A stretch of DNA of 64,000 nt from a virus. Location: the IMG/VR virus record IMGVR_UViG_3300045303_000172, positions 1-64,000 of that record; one strand, 5' to 3'. This document shows positions 1,230 to 12,036 of the stretch, piece after piece. Every line of letters begins with the position of its first letter. Position 1 is the first letter of the stretch. The notes under the pieces were generated by a model. It was not told the DNA's origin, made no database searches, and saw only the letters and a program-made list of their open reading frames with translations. The position numbers and the translations under genes were made by a program.

Positions 1230-1379
1230 ATGAGCCGCCCGAAAACCTCCAAACGCACCAATAAAGGCATTAACTTCCCTCCTGAACTTTACGGGCGAAT
1301 TGTGAAGCATAGCGAGAAAACAGGCGTGCCTATTGCTCGCATCGCCCGACGCGCAATCGAGGCCGCTCTCGCTAAGTAA
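1230..1379 (+). CDS. Ribbon-helix-helix (Arc/CopG-like) regulator
   Basis: 49 aa, KGINFPPELYGRIVKHSEKTGVPIARIARRAIE; sits at the divergent promoter. Confidence 0.8.
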   Translation: MSRPKTSKRTNKGINFPPELYGRIVKHSEKTGVPIARIARRAIEAALAK

Positions 1380-1401
1380 TCCACCACACCAAATACACCC
1401 T

Positions 1402-2799
1402 ATGTTCAAGTTCACCCGTCTCCGTATTAAAAACCTTGGCCCCATTGTCGATACCGATCTGGCTCTCGACATGCCTCTGGTGATTCTCTTTGGCGAAATC
1501 GCGCAGGGCAAAACGAAGCACCTCGACGCTGTTCGCTACGTCTGCGGTGGCGCGTTCCCGCAGGACATTATCAGGCACGGCCAGAAAGAAGCCGTAGTCG
1601 AATTGGACTTCACCGACGGCTCCATCAAGCGCGAGTGGTATTGGTCCAGGGCGACAGAGGGGAAGCCCAGCGAAATCAAGGCTCGACCTGTGCAACTCAT
1701 TCGCAAAGGGCGCCTCGTTGAAAACCCAGTGGCTGAATTGAAGCGGCTTTTGAACCCGTTCATGCTGAACCAGGACTACTTTCGCAGCATGACCGAGGAT
1801 GCGCGGAAGCAATACCTCGTGGACCTCGTAGGCGTTGATACGTCGGCGCTGGACACCGAAGCAACCGCCGCGGCCAGCAAAGCCAAAGACCTGCGGGCCA
1901 AGTTGACCGGCTACGGGGACATTGACCTGACAGAAGTTAAAGAAGTGGACACGGCTGCACTGCGTCAGGAGCTTGCGACGATCCGCACCATGCACGAATC
2001 GAAGGTTGAGGCTTGGAAGAGGGAACGCACAGCGCAGGCCAACGCTCACGCGGCCGCCATCAAGGCTGTTGAGGATGAAAACGACATCATTCGCCAGGGC
2101 AACTCCACGTTCGACCGCGCCTTGCAGACACAGGACGCCTCCAAACTGGAGCTTGCCCGGTTGCAAAAGGCAGTCACCGACCTCCAGGACAGGATGCAGG
2201 CGAATACGCGCTGGATGGCAGATCACCCAAAACAACCTGAGAAACCACTGCCAAGCCAACCGGTAGCGCCAGAGCTCCCCACGGCACCAGACACTTCGGA
2301 GATCGAAGCCAAGCTCCAGAACGCGGCCGCGCAGAACGTTCGCGCTGAGAGTTACAAGCAGAACCTTGAACGCGAGAAGAAACGGCTGGCCGATGAAACC
2401 GCGTTGAAGGCGCTCGAAGACCGCCAACGGCAGATCAAGGCCGAAAAGATCGCAGCGCTCTCCAAGGTCAGTGAGAACAGCGGTGTCAAGGGCTTGACCT
2501 TCGACGAAGACGGGACACCGAAGTTTGAGGGCGTCACCGTCGGAATGCTCTCGGGATCGCAGATGATGCGGCTTTCGAGCGCGTTGGAGGCGTTGTATCC
2601 AGAGGGCCTCGGAATTCTTTTATTGGATAGAGGGGAGTCACTTGGCCGCTCGATCATGGATTACGTCCAGCACGCGGAGAAGACACATACGACGGTCCTT
2701 GCGACAGTCGTTGGTAATCCGCCGGCGGATGTCCCTGAAAAGGTGGGCGTCTTCATTTGCCGCGACGGTTTGATCTTCGATAAGGAGGCATCCAAGTGA
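1402..2799 (+). CDS. SMC/Rad50-like AAA ATPase with coiled coil
   Basis: Walker A GEIAQGKT, long coiled coil, LSGSQ signature, LLLDRGE Walker B. Confidence 0.85.
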   Translation: MFKFTRLRIKNLGPIVDTDLALDMPLVILFGEIAQGKTKHLDAVRYVCGGAFPQDIIRHGQKEAVVELDFTDGSIKREWYWSRATEGKPSEIKARPVQLIRKGRLVENPVAELKRLLNPFMLNQDYFRSMTEDARKQYLVDLVGVDTSALDTEATAAASKAKDLRAKLTGYGDIDLTEVKEVDTAALRQELATIRTMHESKVEAWKRERTAQANAHAAAIKAVEDENDIIRQGNSTFDRALQTQDASKLELARLQKAVTDLQDRMQANTRWMADHPKQPEKPLPSQPVAPELPTAPDTSEIEAKLQNAAAQNVRAESYKQNLEREKKRLADETALKALEDRQRQIKAEKIAALSKVSENSGVKGLTFDEDGTPKFEGVTVGMLSGSQMMRLSSALEALYPEGLGILLLDRGESLGRSIMDYVQHAEKTHTTVLATVVGNPPADVPEKVGVFICRDGLIFDKEASK

Positions 2800-3551
2800 A
2801 CGCCAAAGAAGCTGCCGAAGCGTTAGCGGTTCGTGTCGAATCTCAGACCGCCGTTGCCAAGCCGCTGCCGACGCCAGCGGATATGCTCCAAGCCGTTATC
2901 CAGGGCGGCGTAACCCAGGAGAACGTGGCCGCGGTCAAAGAGATCGTCGGCCTTTACGAGCGTATGGAAGACCGGCGAGCAGCCAAGACCGCCAGCCAGG
3001 CCCTTCGTGAGCTTCAAACCGAGGCTAAGAGCATCGCGGGAACAAAGGGCGTCCCGGATAAGCAGGGCAACATCAAATACAAATATGCCCCCTACGAGGA
3101 AATCATGGCGAAGGCTCAACCACTGCTGACGAAATACGGGTTCAGCGTCCGGTTCTCACAGAAGATGGAGTCTGACCGAACTACCGTGACTTGCATCCTC
3201 ACCCACGACGACGGACACGCCTTCACTAACGAATTCACCGTACGGGTTGGCAGCGGGCCACCGAACGCAACCGCTCCCCAGGCTGACGCAGGAGCCGGGA
3301 CCACAGCCCAACGTGAGGCGTTCTGTGACGCTCTCAACATCGTTCGCTGCCGCGACGATGACGCGCACCTGGTTGGAGCGCCCATTACCAAGGACCAAGC
3401 CGACGAGCTAGAACGGCGCGTGCATGAAACAAACTCGGATAAGGCAGCGTTTCTCAAGCTGGCCGGGGCAGCGACGTTTGCCGAGATTGGCAGCGTGAAA
3501 TACGAGATGTTGGACCAGCTTTTACAGCGTAAAGAGAAGAGGGGTAAGTAG
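2796..3551 (+). CDS. erf: ERF-family single-strand annealing protein
   Basis: YKYAPYEEI...PLL..YG, TVTCILTH..G, PQA.AG..T..R..F...LNI...DDDA pattern. Confidence 0.85.
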   Translation: MNAKEAAEALAVRVESQTAVAKPLPTPADMLQAVIQGGVTQENVAAVKEIVGLYERMEDRRAAKTASQALRELQTEAKSIAGTKGVPDKQGNIKYKYAPYEEIMAKAQPLLTKYGFSVRFSQKMESDRTTVTCILTHDDGHAFTNEFTVRVGSGPPNATAPQADAGAGTTAQREAFCDALNIVRCRDDDAHLVGAPITKDQADELERRVHETNSDKAAFLKLAGAATFAEIGSVKYEMLDQLLQRKEKRGK

Positions 3552-3553
3552 GC

Positions 3554-4237
3554 ATGAAGATTCACACTGAGTTCCAGCAAAATTCCCTCGAATGGCTTTT
3601 GGCGAGAGCCGGGGTTGTCACCGCCAGCGAGTTCGATTCAATCATGACGCCCGAGTTCAAGCCGCGGACTGGCGAAACCGTGAAGTCCTACCTCGCCTTA
3701 AAGCTGGCCGAGTGGTGGACGGGTGGCCCCATGCCGGGGTTCAATACGATCGACATGGAGTTTGGGAAAATCCGGGAGGACGAAGCCATCCCGACTTACA
3801 CCCTCGAAACCGGCATTGCGATTCAGCGCGTAGCCTTCATCACGACCGACGACGGAAAGATTGGGTGCTCGCCGGACGGACTGATCGGCGACGACTCAGG
3901 CATTGAGGTAAAATGCCCGCTTCCGCAGACACATGTAAAATATCTACTGAGCGGCATTGTTCCGAAGGACTACGCCGCTCAGGTCCACGGCGCCATGTAC
4001 GTGACTGGCCGTTCGCATTGGGTTTTCATGTCCTACTCGCCGAGGTTCCCGTTGCTCATTATCGACGTAGAGCGTGACGAAGAGATCCAGGAGAAGATTG
4101 GTTCTGCCTTGGGTGACTTCCTTGAGATGCTGGCCGAGGCGCAGGAACGGCTGATCGCGCTCAACGGTGGACCGCCGCGCAGACTTGAGCCGTCAGTCCC
4201 AATCGTTAAGAAGGTAGTGGAGGACATCTACGCATGA
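3554..4237 (+). CDS. YqaJ/lambda-type exonuclease
   Basis: EWL.AR.G.VTAS, GCSPDGL, IEVKCP, Y.AQV motifs. Confidence 0.93.
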   Translation: MKIHTEFQQNSLEWLLARAGVVTASEFDSIMTPEFKPRTGETVKSYLALKLAEWWTGGPMPGFNTIDMEFGKIREDEAIPTYTLETGIAIQRVAFITTDDGKIGCSPDGLIGDDSGIEVKCPLPQTHVKYLLSGIVPKDYAAQVHGAMYVTGRSHWVFMSYSPRFPLLIIDVERDEEIQEKIGSALGDFLEMLAEAQERLIALNGGPPRRLEPSVPIVKKVVEDIYA

Positions 4238-4605
4238 GCAGCAAAATTCAAATCGAATCACTCGCCTGCGGAGCTGGCGACATCAAGCTCTCGTTCAACT
4301 CCAACGACCCGATGGAAGTCGAACGAGCCAAGCGTGTAGTCGTTGACATGCTCCGCAGAGGTTACAGCCTCTTCATTCAAGGCACCGATGGCACCATGAC
4401 CCGAGTCGCAGCCTTCGACGAAAAGGCCGGGTGCTATCTCATTGCCTGCGGACCTGAGATTGCGCCGACGCCATTGACCGAGGAAGAGAAAGTCGTTGAA
4501 CCACCGCCAGCAGTAGAGCCGAAGCGCGGACGTGGCCGACCGCGTAAAGCCGTTAAAATGTCCCACGCCAAAGTCGTTGCTGTTGGCCGTTCTGCTGGAG
4601 GGTGA
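4234..4605 (+). CDS. Hypothetical protein with AT-hook-like motif and C-terminal GG
   Basis: KRGRGRPRK; ends VVAVGRSAGG; ATGA-coupled to exonuclease gene. Confidence 0.8.
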   Translation: MSSKIQIESLACGAGDIKLSFNSNDPMEVERAKRVVVDMLRRGYSLFIQGTDGTMTRVAAFDEKAGCYLIACGPEIAPTPLTEEEKVVEPPPAVEPKRGRGRPRKAVKMSHAKVVAVGRSAGG

Positions 4606-5318
4606 TTATGCCGCCGACACTTCCAACCTACCGACAACTTGCCTCTCGCTCTGTCGCCGCCGCGAAAGAGAAGCATGAGTGGGCAGGCTTTCCTATGCCC
4701 ATCGAAGGCCAACGGCTTGTCATTGCCGATGGCTACCCCTATAAGGACGGCTTGGAACGCTTCCAGTTCGGAACCACGCTACACGTCGATACCACCGAGA
4801 CAGTCAACGAGTGCCCTGACTGCGAGATAAACCGCTTCTACTCCTGTTACAAAGGGACGGACGTCGTTGTAATCAGACAGGCGAACGGGCGTACGACTTA
4901 CGGGCTCAATACTCACAACCGGGCTAAGATGCTGCTGGATACCATTGGCGCATCGTTCGCTTGGCCGATGGAGGCCGAGCTGAAAGCAACCGAGAAACTA
5001 GAGGAACTGATCGGGCGCGACCGATTGACGGTCTATCTACTCACCGGCTGCTTCCTGGAAACGAGCAAGCGTAGCGGCGTCATTTATATGTTCCGCAAGT
5101 CCCGCCCAACGATTGCCATTTCACAGAGCGATGGCGAATTGAAGATCCTCTGCGCCCTCTGCCTGCACCCGGTTGGCTATTATCAGGGGACGTGGGCGGG
5201 GACGATGACGCCGACCGACGACGTTGTGGCGCATCTCATTTTGATGCGTGGCGATGAACACAAGTATTGGGCGCATTCCAGCCAGCATCCGGCGTATAGA
5301 CACGAGGCCGGGCTATGA
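4602..5318 (+). CDS. Hypothetical protein with CLHP...PTDD...DE motif
   Basis: GTGA-coupled to the GG-tailed gene; globular C-terminal half. Confidence 0.8.
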   Translation: MIMPPTLPTYRQLASRSVAAAKEKHEWAGFPMPIEGQRLVIADGYPYKDGLERFQFGTTLHVDTTETVNECPDCEINRFYSCYKGTDVVVIRQANGRTTYGLNTHNRAKMLLDTIGASFAWPMEAELKATEKLEELIGRDRLTVYLLTGCFLETSKRSGVIYMFRKSRPTIAISQSDGELKILCALCLHPVGYYQGTWAGTMTPTDDVVAHLILMRGDEHKYWAHSSQHPAYRHEAGL

Positions 5319-5500
5319 GCGACGACACCAAACGCGGAGAAGACCGAGAGTTGCGCTGTGACTTCTGCGACAAGGTTTCGTCCATTATGCAAGTCGAGAT
5401 CGAATACGAGACTGAGCCAAACACGCTTACGAACCTACGAAGCGTAGGATACGTTAAATGGAAGTGCCCATTCTGCGGCTGCTTCAACCCTGAAACATGA
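5315..5500 (+). CDS. Small zinc-ribbon protein
   Basis: CDFC...CPFC; coupled on both sides. Confidence 0.65.
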   Translation: MSDDTKRGEDRELRCDFCDKVSSIMQVEIEYETEPNTLTNLRSVGYVKWKCPFCGCFNPET

Positions 5501-5898
5501 GCACCAAAAAGAAAGTTGTTTTCAGCTTCGACGAAGAAGTGAGCCCCGGACGATTTGAGACTCGGAGCCTGATTGGGCGCATCGGTAAGCACAAGAGCGG
5601 GCCGCGAGACATGCCGGACTGGGTATCGCGTGACTACGCTCTGGTTGTGCCGTGCAAATTCATCCGTTGTCCGCTGAACCGCTCTGAACATTGCTCGATG
5701 CCGAGCGGGATAAAGATCGGAGCCGACGCTTCTTGCACGACCGGGCGCGATCTTGTGGACAAGCCCCCTGTCCAACCAAAGCGAACGGTTTGCAAGTGGT
5801 GTGGCGGAGAAATCGTTCCCGAGTATTCAGAGTTCGGGCGTCCGATTGTTTGGCAGCACCTCAACGAGAAACTCAGCCACCAAGCTGAACCACGATGA
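5497..5898 (+). CDS. Hypothetical Cys-rich protein
   Basis: Coupled ORF in operon. Confidence 0.6.
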   Translation: MSTKKKVVFSFDEEVSPGRFETRSLIGRIGKHKSGPRDMPDWVSRDYALVVPCKFIRCPLNRSEHCSMPSGIKIGADASCTTGRDLVDKPPVQPKRTVCKWCGGEIVPEYSEFGRPIVWQHLNEKLSHQAEPR

Positions 5899-6360: not shown

Positions 6361-7257
6361 ATGGGATACGGAACATTCGACGCGGGAGCCTACCGCTCGT
6401 TCAGTGCGAGCACGGCCAGCAAATCCACGGACGAGATTTATTCGTCCCGCAACCTCCACAAAGACCTAGACCCAAAAGGCGTCAAGCTCCGCGAATCCCG
6501 CGACAGCGCCGACAACCCCAGCTCGACGCCAATCATCGTCGCCATCGACGTGACCGGCAGCATGGGTATGATCGCTGACGTGCTCGCGCGCCAGGGGCTC
6601 GGCACGCTGTTCAAGGAACTACTCGAAGGCAAAGCGGCAGCCAACCCGCACCTGATGTTCATGGCCATTGGGGACGCTTACTGCGACCAAGCGCCGTTGC
6701 AGGTATCGCAGTTCGAGGCCGACAACCGCATCGTTGAGCAACTTACGAAAATCTGGATCGAGCACGGTGGCGGCGGAAACGATTCCGAGAGTTACAATCT
6801 GCCGTGGTATTTTGCGGCCAACCACACCGAACACGACAGCATGGTGAAAAGGGGAAAGCGTGGCTATTTGTTTACGGTCGGTGATGAGTGCGCCCCGCAA
6901 TCTCTCACTTGCGACCAGATCGAGAGATTCATCGGTGACAAGATGGAGCGCGCCCAGTTCAGCGACGAGATGCTCCGCGACGCACAGCGCAAGTACGAGT
7001 GCTACCACGTCGTCATTGCTGAAGGCGATCATGCCCGTAGCCACGCCGATCAAGTGCGCCAAACTTGGGCCGACATGGTTGGTCAGCGCATGATCTGGCT
7101 CAAAGATCACACGAAGCTGGCTGAAACGGTGGTAAGCGCCATCGCTATTGCTGAGGGCCAAGCAGCCGAAGCGGCCAAGAAGTTTGGTGTCCACGTCTTT
7201 GACGCTGTGAAGAACCTGCCAGCCAGCAAAACTCCACGTCTTGCGCTTACGGCATGA
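6361..7257 (+). CDS. vWA-domain protein
   Basis: MIDAS-like IDVTGSM, GGGGN.SESY, FTVGDE. Confidence 0.88.
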   Translation: MGYGTFDAGAYRSFSASTASKSTDEIYSSRNLHKDLDPKGVKLRESRDSADNPSSTPIIVAIDVTGSMGMIADVLARQGLGTLFKELLEGKAAANPHLMFMAIGDAYCDQAPLQVSQFEADNRIVEQLTKIWIEHGGGGNDSESYNLPWYFAANHTEHDSMVKRGKRGYLFTVGDECAPQSLTCDQIERFIGDKMERAQFSDEMLRDAQRKYECYHVVIAEGDHARSHADQVRQTWADMVGQRMIWLKDHTKLAETVVSAIAIAEGQAAEAAKKFGVHVFDAVKNLPASKTPRLALTA

Positions 7258-8288
7258 GGGCAAGAATTGTTATCGGTGCCTCCTTCGGTGATGAATCGAA
7301 GGGGGCCTGCGTCGATTGGCTTTGTTCCAAAGGCGCGGGCGTTGTTGTCCGGTTTAACGGCGGCGGGCAGGCAGGGCATACTGTTGTAACTCCAGACGGC
7401 GACCGTCACGTCTTCCGACACTGCGGAAGTGGCACACTACTTGGGGTGCCGACATTCTTGTCGCAGTACTTCGTTTGCAATCCTATCCTGTTCTTTGCTG
7501 AGCGGCAGCAGCTCATTGAACTCGGATACCATCCCGTCGTGTTCGCGCACCCGGAGTGCCTTGTGACCACATTCGCAGACATGCTCATCAACCAGATCAA
7601 GGAAACCAAACGCGGGAGCGCCCGCCATGGTTCCTGCGGGGTTGGCTTCCATGAAACAATCGTTCGTTCCCAGGTGAAGGAGCTCAAGATCACCATGGGC
7701 GACCTTTGGAATGGAGTGAACATCGAACCGCAGCTTGCCGAGATTTGCGACAAATACGCCCGCTATCGTGTCGGCCATAAATTCGACGAACCTGAAGCCT
7801 GCAAGGCTTTCATCGAAGCCTGCCGAGACTTCGCTCAGTGCATTCACCCGGCAGGCATTGGTCAGTGCAAAGATCCGGTGTTTGAGGGGGCCCAGGGCTT
7901 GTTGCTGGATCAGAACAACAAGGAATTTTTCCCACACCTGACGCACTCAAATACCGGGATGCGGAACATCGAAGTGCTCTGCGCTCAGGCGGGAATCACG
8001 GACAAGGAGATTTACTACGTGAGCCGGACTTACCTGACGCGCCATGGAGCTGGCCCGCTGCCAGGCGAAGACCCGACGATGTCCTTCGAGGACAACACAA
8101 ATCACCAGACGCGCTTTCAAGGCTCGCTCAGATTCGCTCCGCTTGACGAACGCTCGCTGATTTCACGGTGCAAAGAGGACGCTGGATCAAATGGCTTTAA
8201 GCTGGTCCTGACTCACTGCGACCAACTGCCAGCGAAGATCGAAGCCGATCATTATGCTTGGGGTCCGACCAGGAAGGACATGAAATAA
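7254..8288 (+). CDS. Adenylosuccinate synthetase-like protein (divergent PurA family)
   Basis: FGDESKG, RFNGG.QAGHTV, FEGAQGLLLD, T.SNTG, Y.TRHGAGP.P. Confidence 0.88.
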   Translation: MRARIVIGASFGDESKGACVDWLCSKGAGVVVRFNGGGQAGHTVVTPDGDRHVFRHCGSGTLLGVPTFLSQYFVCNPILFFAERQQLIELGYHPVVFAHPECLVTTFADMLINQIKETKRGSARHGSCGVGFHETIVRSQVKELKITMGDLWNGVNIEPQLAEICDKYARYRVGHKFDEPEACKAFIEACRDFAQCIHPAGIGQCKDPVFEGAQGLLLDQNNKEFFPHLTHSNTGMRNIEVLCAQAGITDKEIYYVSRTYLTRHGAGPLPGEDPTMSFEDNTNHQTRFQGSLRFAPLDERSLISRCKEDAGSNGFKLVLTHCDQLPAKIEADHYAWGPTRKDMK

Positions 8289-8290
8289 AT

Positions 8291-8725
8291 ATGAAAGCAA
8301 TCAGCCTTTGGGAGCCGTGGGCATCGGCAATGGCTCTCGGAGTGAAACACAACGAAACCCGTAGTTGGCCGACCTGTCACCGTGGTGACTTAGTGATCTG
8401 CGCGGCCAAGCGACCAATTGACGATTTTAGCTGGAAGCTTGTGGAGCTATTCGGCGTGGACGTTGAGACATTCCAACTTGGTTACGGGAACGCCTTATGT
8501 GTCGTTGACCTTTGTGAGTGCGCGAATACAGAAGATTTCCAGGGCGCGACACCTCTGCATCTGACCGCAGTTGAGGCGATGCTTGGCAACTACGAACCGA
8601 GGCGCTTTGCTTGGTTAACTCGGAACTGCCGAAAGCTCAGGCGACCAGTCCAGGTCCGTGGCCAGCAAGGACTCTGGACGCTCAATGATGCGACAAACTC
8701 TGCCATTCTCGCGCAAATCCAATGA
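8291..8725 (+). CDS. ASCH-domain protein
   Basis: MKAISLWEPWAS...GVKHNETRSW...RG.L.I.A, RGQQGLW. Confidence 0.88.
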   Translation: MKAISLWEPWASAMALGVKHNETRSWPTCHRGDLVICAAKRPIDDFSWKLVELFGVDVETFQLGYGNALCVVDLCECANTEDFQGATPLHLTAVEAMLGNYEPRRFAWLTRNCRKLRRPVQVRGQQGLWTLNDATNSAILAQIQ

Positions 8726-11241: not shown

Positions 11242-12036
11242 ATGACAGAATCCTTGGTCCCTCAAATCTGGTCCTGCGGAGGCGGCACCCAATCCTGCGC
11301 CATCGCCGCCCTGATCGTTCAAGGCCGACTCCCGAAGCCGCACCTGTCCGTCATAGCGGACACCGGGCGCGAGATGCCGACGACATGACAGTACCTGGAC
11401 GCCGTTCTTCGCCCCGCGCTCGCCAAAGTTGGAGTTGAGATAGTTCGCGTGAAAAAGGACGAATGGGCGACCCCAAGGGGTCGCCTCCTGTTTGCAACCA
11501 GCGGCCAGTTGATGATTCCGGCTTACACGAATCAGAGCGGGGAAGCATCGAAGCTGTCCGCCTTCTGTTCGGCCGCTTGGAAACAAGAAGTCGTGGACCG
11601 CTGGCTGTCGATCACGCACGACCTGACGCGCAGTAAATACGTCAAGTGGATCGGGTTCTCCCGCGATGAGAAAACCCGCATCCTTCGAATGCAGAACGGC
11701 GAAGAATGGAAGTCCGGCCTGATCCGGTTCCCGCTGCACGATGACTTTCCGATGCGGCGGCACGAGGCTATCAAGCTCGTTCAGGACATGGGTTGGCCAA
11801 AGCCGCCACGCAGCCGGTGCTTCGATTGTCCCAACCAGTCGGACATGGAATGGTATGAGGTTAAGACAGATTACCCAGAACTGTTCGCCAGCGCCGTTGA
11901 ACGTGACGAGACTATGCGTCAGCGTGATCCGCACGCTTTCCTGCACAGCTCGGTAAAGCCCCTCCGGGACGCAAACCTTGATCCGAAGGAAGACTTGTTC
12001 AGTGCCGGGTGCGCGAGTGGAGAGTGCTTCCTTTGA
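11242..12036 (+). pseudogene. PAPS-reductase-like (PP-loop) phage protein with in-frame TGA at 11386-11388
   Basis: SCGGGTQS, ADTGRE.PTT*QYL, IGFS.DE..R, FPL, PPRSRCFDCP, C-terminal C.SG.CF; both ORF-track pieces share one frame. Confidence 0.8.

Follow-up and report, generated by a model that had tools for sequence, protein, structure and literature searches.

To our knowledge, ubiquitin-like (Ubl) conjugation in bacteria has so far been a matter of host anti-phage defense (type II CBASS, Bil, and Bub), and it almost always needs an activating enzyme (E1). The nearest precedent for the locus described here is E2-CBASS, a type II "short" CBASS of Serratia marcescens that comprises CdnG and a stand-alone E2 (PDB 8hsb). 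In this system, Cys101 and His87 of the E2 act as a cysteine protease that removes the single residue after a conserved glycine of the CD-NTase, and a thioester and then an isopeptide are formed without an E1 (bioRxiv 10.1101/2022.05.25.493364; structure paper, PMC12948482). Here, we analyze a two-gene unit in a 64,000-nucleotide stretch of viral DNA (the window), which covers positions 1 to 64,000 of a complete, 78,288-bp virus record with direct terminal repeats (DTRs; IMG/VR record IMGVR_UViG_3300045303_000172). The first gene encodes a 123-amino-acid (aa) protein with a free C-terminal Gly-Gly (the small protein), and the second encodes a protein with an invariant Cys-x-His (the partner). 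We tentatively read the pair as an E1-less, ubiquitin-like acyl-transfer unit in which the small protein would undergo covalent, Ubl-type transfer via Cys185 of the partner, an account that we regard as possible rather than probable. The Ubl/E2-type logic itself is known; what is new here is that the unit is phage-borne, lacks an E1, and is built from two undescribed families.

The phage pair resembles E2-CBASS in the absence of an E1 and in the presence of one glycine after the penultimate glycine of an A-G-G tail. Unlike in E2-CBASS, there is no CD-NTase, the tail resides on a small stand-alone protein, and the neighboring genes are recombination, methylase, and DUF1643 genes. The Cys/His spacing also differs (C-x-H here versus His87...Cys101 there), no sequence similarity was detected, and the module is carried by a phage rather than used in host defense, so that any shared chemistry is proposed by analogy only. 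A small Ubl with a reactive C-terminal glycine beside a Cys-bearing E2-like protein is likewise characteristic of the Bil (BilABCD), Bub, and E1E2/JAB-CBASS operons (classes 6a to 6e; Iyer et al. 2006), of which the CEHH protein is BilB. In contrast to the phage pair, an E1 is part of all these operons and a JAB or serine peptidase of most, and our comparison of the partner with the Prok-E2_A and Prok-E2_B families was negative. ThiS, MoaD, TtuB, and SAMP share with the small protein an alpha/beta architecture of modest size, a free Gly-Gly end, and an activating enzyme located elsewhere in the host genome, but the phage protein differs from them in having no Pfam ThiS or ubiquitin match, a long disordered linker, and an obligate Cys-His partner, and in being phage-carried. 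Finally, the lambda-like tail assembly protein I (TAPI) and protein K (JAB plus NlpC/P60) offer a phage Ub-like domain with a glycine-rich C-terminal region and a thiol- or metallo-peptidase pairing (PMC1779556); these lie in a tail assembly module with JAB and NlpC/P60, whereas the present pair lies in an early recombination region without either domain.

A first-pass annotation of this locus had reported the 123-aa protein ending in Gly-Gly, a GTGA overlap with the next gene, and the motifs LCLHP, PTDD, and DE..YW, all of which are present in the sequence. The checks that it named for a proposed tagging system were conservation of the terminal Gly-Gly, co-inheritance of the two genes, constancy of the Cys and His, and docking of the tail at the Cys; the first three are borne out among relatives, and the fourth is supported by a predicted complex. 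The small protein terminates in KVVAVGRSAGG, with GCT GGA GGG as the last codons followed by TGA at 4603-4605. An exact Gly-Gly end is found in 156 of 157 relatives, which are stand-alone, tail-bearing proteins of 108 to 221 aa with the tail consensus R-[VIL]-P-A-x-x-T-[RK]-A-V-A-V-[GA]-R-[ST]-A-G-G. Both Gly positions draw on all four Gly codons, the genes end in any of the three stop codons, and GGAGG is seen at just 33 of 96 distinct loci, indicating that the tail is selected at the protein level. We considered whether the Gly-Gly codons (GGAGGG here) are kept as a ribosome-binding site for the downstream gene and rejected this explanation, given the codon variation and a tail that is unchanged when the small gene sits downstream. 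Five relatives (L110, L118, L061, L113, and protein P0208) extend 2 to 20 residues beyond AGG; judged from their sequences, they look like precursors that require trimming or like sequencing or frame errors. The folded head of the small protein carries the conserved motifs GAGD and DMLRRGY. The first-pass annotation had also pointed to an AT-hook-like insert that could tether the protein to DNA: RGRGRPRK is indeed present in the linker, but its match to Pfam AT_hook is subthreshold (E = 0.0067; 16.6 bits against a cutoff of 17.4) and RGRP occurs in just 53 of the 157 relatives, so the motif appears optional.

Conservation of the partner centers on its Cys-x-His. Partner residues are numbered throughout after P0001, the public gene call of 236 aa that starts at ATG 4608. 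Two alignments were used, one of 32 sequences and one of 97 sequences with 41 to 82% identity to the window protein, and Cys185 and His187 are invariant columns in both; a motif tally recovered C-x-H in all 120 partner relatives. D204, R214, E217, and W221 are invariant as well in the 97-sequence alignment, in which P188, P202, T203, H209, and H227 are at least 90% conserved. Neither the alignments nor the tally revealed a conserved Cys about 10 residues past His187. The structure model (pLDDT, 86.8) places a five-strand meander at residues 148 to 192. The best-conserved stretch of the partner is a separate Ser/Arg/Lys-rich segment at residues 151 to 168 (window 5058-5111; ETSKRSGVxYxFRKLRPT), which lies outside the interface predicted below and may be a second binding site, for a target, a nucleotide, or DNA.

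The two genes travel together. Among 70 viral loci found via the partner, the small gene adjoins it on the same strand in 67, and the pairing is kept even when the gene order is swapped (L029, L034, L035, and L060), with the tail still R[ST]AGG. Addition of 52 further loci from bacterial genome assemblies gave 97 intact pairs over 121 loci. In the window, the small gene begins with an ATG that shares bases with the stop codon of the YqaJ exonuclease gene before it (ATGA), and GTG 4602 of the partner overlaps the TGA of the small gene (GTGA). These overlaps are part of a chain of six genes at 2796-5898 (ERF, YqaJ, small protein, partner, zinc ribbon, and a 133-aa protein) linked by ATGA or GTGA, which implies translational coupling through an early operon. 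The two genes read as an obligate pair, and their linkage, like the fixed Gly-Gly and Cys-x-His, goes well beyond chance. A programmed frameshift that fuses the two open reading frames (ORFs) was rejected, since no ORF matches both families and the order is reversible, and a search for longer, fused versions of the partner yielded one 527-aa protein with beta-helix domains, which was uninformative. Across 93 unique pairs, mutual information between tail and partner columns mainly reflected shared ancestry and variable columns and is thus no test of the interface. We also looked for a conserved third gene that could substitute for an E1 beside the pair and found none over the 121 loci. The most common extra gene is DUF1643 (PF07799), which 43 of the 121 loci carry immediately after the pair (e.g., L016:2370-3074) and which is absent from the window; a literature search returned nothing useful on its function. 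Other neighbors over the same loci include RecT, DUF2303, DNA methylases, HerA-like ATPases, and integrases, none of which is tightly linked.

The first-pass annotation had seen no E1/ThiF or JAB gene in the window, and this holds for the whole phage, as the complete 78,288-bp record contains no ThiF-type E1 and no Prok-JAB. ThiF scored above the cutoff in only 1 of 50 related phage records (25 of the 50 are at least 90% complete), and none was found within 4 to 6 kb of the pair in the 121 loci. The sole E1 candidate among the 50 records is a ThiF-family protein (L131; G316:C1:24151-24798; 46 bits; 396-aa frame) that lies about 20 kb from the Gly-Gly/Cys-His pair of the same phage (the record behind L020). 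In cultured carriers of the module, Sphingopyxis flava among them, ordinary ThiF-family genes are present at other places in the genome, which suits a rival explanation that casts the small protein as a modifier or sulfur carrier dependent on a host E1. The AGG end of the small protein, similar to that of ThiS/MoaD, would be adenylated by a host ThiF or MoeB and then either thiocarboxylated, supplying sulfur for modification of phage nucleic acid, or handed over to Cys185 for conjugation. Escherichia coli ThiS ends in A-G-G, a language-model search gave a weak lead to a ThiS-containing cluster (score, 0.75), and a short PurA-like gene in the window, together with a putatively PAPS-reductase-like ORF (both described below), hints at nucleotide or DNA modification. 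We nevertheless consider this explanation improbable: the small protein has no ThiS, MoaD, or ubiquitin sequence match at E ≤ 10, the long linker would keep the beta-grasp head far from the E1 active site, a single tail would have to suit the different host E1s of at least eight phyla, and no sulfurtransferase is linked to the pair.

We modeled the complex of the two proteins from our own alignments (97 and 114 rows) in three runs, along with three controls. The interface score ipSAE reached 0.71, 0.75, and 0.75, versus 0.00 for the best of the three controls; 58 of 80 solved complexes attain the mark applied to this score, as do 2 of 110 mismatched pairs, counts that are rough for the present purpose since our own alignments were used. 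Contacts agree between runs to at least 45%, with a partner pLDDT of 67 or more. The score supports binding as a prediction, not as a demonstration of it. In the model, tail residues 115 to 123 contact partner residues 185 to 191 and 198 to 201, such that the tail is predicted to lie on the Cys-x-His strand, and Pro188 touches tail residues 117 to 120. Head residues 9 to 17, 39 to 47, and 53 to 57 contact the partner helices 204 to 216 and 118 to 134, and the partner interface includes residues 25 to 30, 38 to 43, 204, 207 to 208, 211 to 216, 219, and 223 to 225. This predicted layout of tail and head may be likened to the "closed" E2~Ub arrangement.

The large predicted interface, which takes in most of the conserved head residues plus the tail, is also what the main rival explanation would lead one to expect, namely, a purely noncovalent obligate heterodimer. 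The strand-like AVAVGR of the tail would dock to complete the partner sheet, with the terminal carboxylate and small glycines held in a tight pocket and with Cys185 and His187 serving as structural or metal ligands, and the complex would serve the DNA metabolism of the phage early in infection or the takeover of the host, at times assisted by the AT-hook. Translational coupling suits subunits made 1:1, the neighbors are recombination and DNA modification genes, two more partner histidines (H209 and H227) are conserved, and there is neither an E1 or JAB nor a sequence link to E2 families. We judge the heterodimer somewhat unlikely, as a strand that simply docks would not usually stop at exactly Gly-Gly in 156 of 157 relatives, though carboxylate-recognizing pockets exist. 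The extensions past Gly-Gly in a few relatives would also block such a pocket unless trimmed, and the interface does not include the best-conserved partner segment, 151 to 168, to which something else may bind. A folded head, a disordered linker, and a tail lying on invariant residues of the partner further resemble a type II antitoxin, and the two-gene cassette, small gene first, occurs in proviruses too. The partner would accordingly be a Cys/His hydrolase kept inactive by the tail, which would sit in the active site as a plug up to the time of its release or degradation. Such an inhibitor-enzyme, toxin-antitoxin-like unit seems very improbable to us, as antitoxin tails usually show much less conservation than this one, some loci have the two genes in reverse order, many carriers are complete DTR genomes with no signs of lysogeny, and there is no match to PADLOC or a toxin-antitoxin family.

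Fold comparisons returned weak but recurring resemblances. Foldseek found nothing significant in the PDB for either model and, in BFVD, a single unnamed viral protein for the partner (E = 1.4e-4); reexamination of Foldseek's own matches with VIA added nothing for either model. VIA-align scores for the C-terminal domain of the partner are low but recur within the UBC/RWD superfamily: Ubc9 (3.9, 3.3, and 84 in unlabeled columns), four RWD domains (2.9 to 3.3), E2S (3.2), CdnG-E2 (8hsb_B; 2.8, blank, and 100 in the same unlabeled columns), and Ube2W (2.8). The head of the small protein likewise gave weak, recurrent beta-grasp matches, and no ThiS, MoaD, or ubiquitin family matched it in Pfam (114 members; E ≤ 10) or among PDB sequences. 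The partner C-terminal domain is therefore described as weakly "UBC/RWD-like in shape" from its model and is not filed as an E2, because profile comparison with the E2 families stays below 1% while the two E2 families match each other at 69%.

For the acyl-transfer unit that we tentatively favor, we infer the chemical steps and the existence of a target as follows. The partner would grip the small protein by head and tail alike, with the tail along the Cys185-x-His187 strand, and the tail carboxyl would be converted to a thioester on Cys185. From there, it would be transferred to an amine, which could belong to a target, to the partner, or to a further copy. Since no E1 travels with the pair, activation would come from one of two sources. 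By analogy with E2-CBASS, protease action of the Cys/His pair could cut away the last Gly and leave the penultimate Gly bound to the partner as an acyl-enzyme; alternatively, a host ThiF/MoeB-type E1 could adenylate the tail. Protease-type handling, with the last Gly leaving, would explain why both glycines are fixed, why no E1 is needed, and why five extensions after AGG are tolerated.

Several points weigh against this reading. The fold and the Gly-Gly are separated by a linker of 30 to 100 residues, unlike in known Ubls, and translational coupling and a large conserved head-partner interface also fit a stable noncovalent heterodimer. The Cys and His could bind a metal, with H209 and H227 also about 90% conserved. 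The complex model was read as contacts without coordinates and hence gives no distance between Cys185 and the terminal Gly. Comparison of the partner by hhalign with Prok-E2_A and Prok-E2_B, using alignments built within this analysis, gave probabilities of 0.1 to 0.9%, versus 68.7% for the control comparison of Prok-E2_A with Prok-E2_B. Cys185 also lies two residues before His-Pro (C-L-H-P), not about 10 after it as in classical E2s. The catalytic Cys of Atg3 lies inside an HPC motif. Bacterial E2-like proteins with shifted His/Cys positions, BilB (CEHH) among them, are on record (Iyer et al. 2006, PMC1779556). The tagging interpretation of the first-pass annotation is supported in part; conservation, linkage, the lack of an E1 or JAB, and the complex model speak for it. 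A bolder claim would make the pair the first phage-encoded, self-contained Ubl tagging system, in which a tag activated without ATP or an E1, its last Gly leaving, is attached to host or phage proteins early in infection and which has spread across phages of many bacterial phyla; we consider it unlikely.

The features of the pair and of the surrounding early genes are compiled in Table 1.

Table 1. Coordinates of the Gly-Gly/Cys-His pair, its parts, and adjacent genes in the window
Feature	Positions	Strand	Context or basis
SbcC-like ATPase	1333-2799		Early gene run; Pfam/PHROGs scans
ERF	2796-3551		Early gene run
YqaJ exonuclease	3554-4237		Directly upstream of the small-protein gene
Small protein, 123 aa	4234-4605	+	ORF and translation
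N-terminal folded domain, residues 1-72	4234-4449	+	Beta-beta-alpha-beta-beta-beta, beta-grasp-like
Disordered linker, variable length	4450-4545	+	pLDDT <50; length differs among homologs
AT-hook-like KRGRGRPRK, residues 96-104	4519-4545		Within linker
Conserved C-terminal tail, 18 residues	4549-4602	+	Gly-Gly codons 4597-4602
Partner, 236 aa from ATG 4608 or 238 aa from GTG 4602	4608 or 4602 to 5318	+	ORF and translation
Partner N-terminal part: helix, EWAGxPMP motif, variable insert, three-stranded beta unit (residues 66-103)	4608-4919	+	
Partner C-terminal alpha/beta domain, residues ~105-236: three helices, beta-meander, two helices	4920-5315	+	
Cys185-Leu-His187, then Pro188 (LCLHP)	5160-5168	+	End of last long strand
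PTDD (202-205)...H209...MRGDEHKYW (213-221)...QH227 block	5211-5288	+	Two C-terminal helices
Zinc-ribbon protein, 61 aa	5315-5500		Downstream of the partner
133-aa protein	5497-5898		After the zinc ribbon

Other observations concern the remainder of the window. Its very start (1-616) is an array in which a 9-bp unit (GCGGCCCTC and GCGTCCATC variants) is repeated about 68 times, with TRF periods of 18 and 27 at 86 to 87% matches. The array yields a spurious Ala/Leu/Ser-rich ORF at 28-732 and may belong to the terminal repeat of this DTR genome or to its packaging region. A short adenylosuccinate-synthetase-like gene of 344 aa lies at 7254-8288 (Pfam Adenylsucc_synt, E = 8e-36). It falls far below all NCBIfam PurA cutoffs and matches PurZ only weakly (32 bits against a cutoff of 300), and going by sequence, it may represent a divergent enzyme of the PurZ type that serves a modified base. 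This gene is flanked by a 298-aa ORF at 6361-7257, guessed to be VWA-like, for which the libraries gave no significant family (best, GFO_IDH_MocA; E = 0.068), and by a 155-aa ORF at 8258-8725. The ORF at 11449-12036, which we take to be PAPS-reductase-like, was assigned no family by NCBIfam.

Both families are large and mostly viral. A search of 90%-identity clusters with the partner gave 632 relatives at E ≤ 1e-3, and a profile search with the small protein retrieved 661 representatives of 50%-identity clusters at E ≤ 1e-3 and 535 at E ≤ 1e-10. No Pfam family matched the partner (97 members) or the small protein (114 members) at E ≤ 10, neither protein was matched in PHROGs, NCBIfam, PADLOC, or PDB sequence profiles, and a literature search found no paper on either family. 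A tblastn search with the partner against 50,697 GenBank phage records returned no match and thus provides no handle in a cultured phage; a culturable bacterium, Sphingopyxis flava R11H, carries the module in a prophage (L102). In the ESM Atlas, a language-model search with the partner recovered only unnamed, mostly viral clusters, while the small-protein head gave the weak ThiS-cluster lead mentioned above. Carriers among the bacterial assemblies are mostly Verrucomicrobiota and Pseudomonadota and also include Planctomycetota, Acidobacteriota, Elusimicrobia, Chloroflexota, and others; overall, the module is present in phages of at least eight phyla, in proviruses as well as in DTR genomes.

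The pair is thus a compact two-gene phage unit that combines hallmarks of Ubl chemistry, an invariant free Gly-Gly and an invariant Cys-His, without an E1. If conjugation proves true, phages would tag proteins too, E1-independent activation would be more common than the single case of E2-CBASS suggests, and a function would be found for two families, each with more than 600 clusters. If the two proteins form a complex only, the pair would still define a wholly unannotated module of early genes, one that is very common among phages of Verrucomicrobiota, Pseudomonadota, Planctomycetota, and other phyla.

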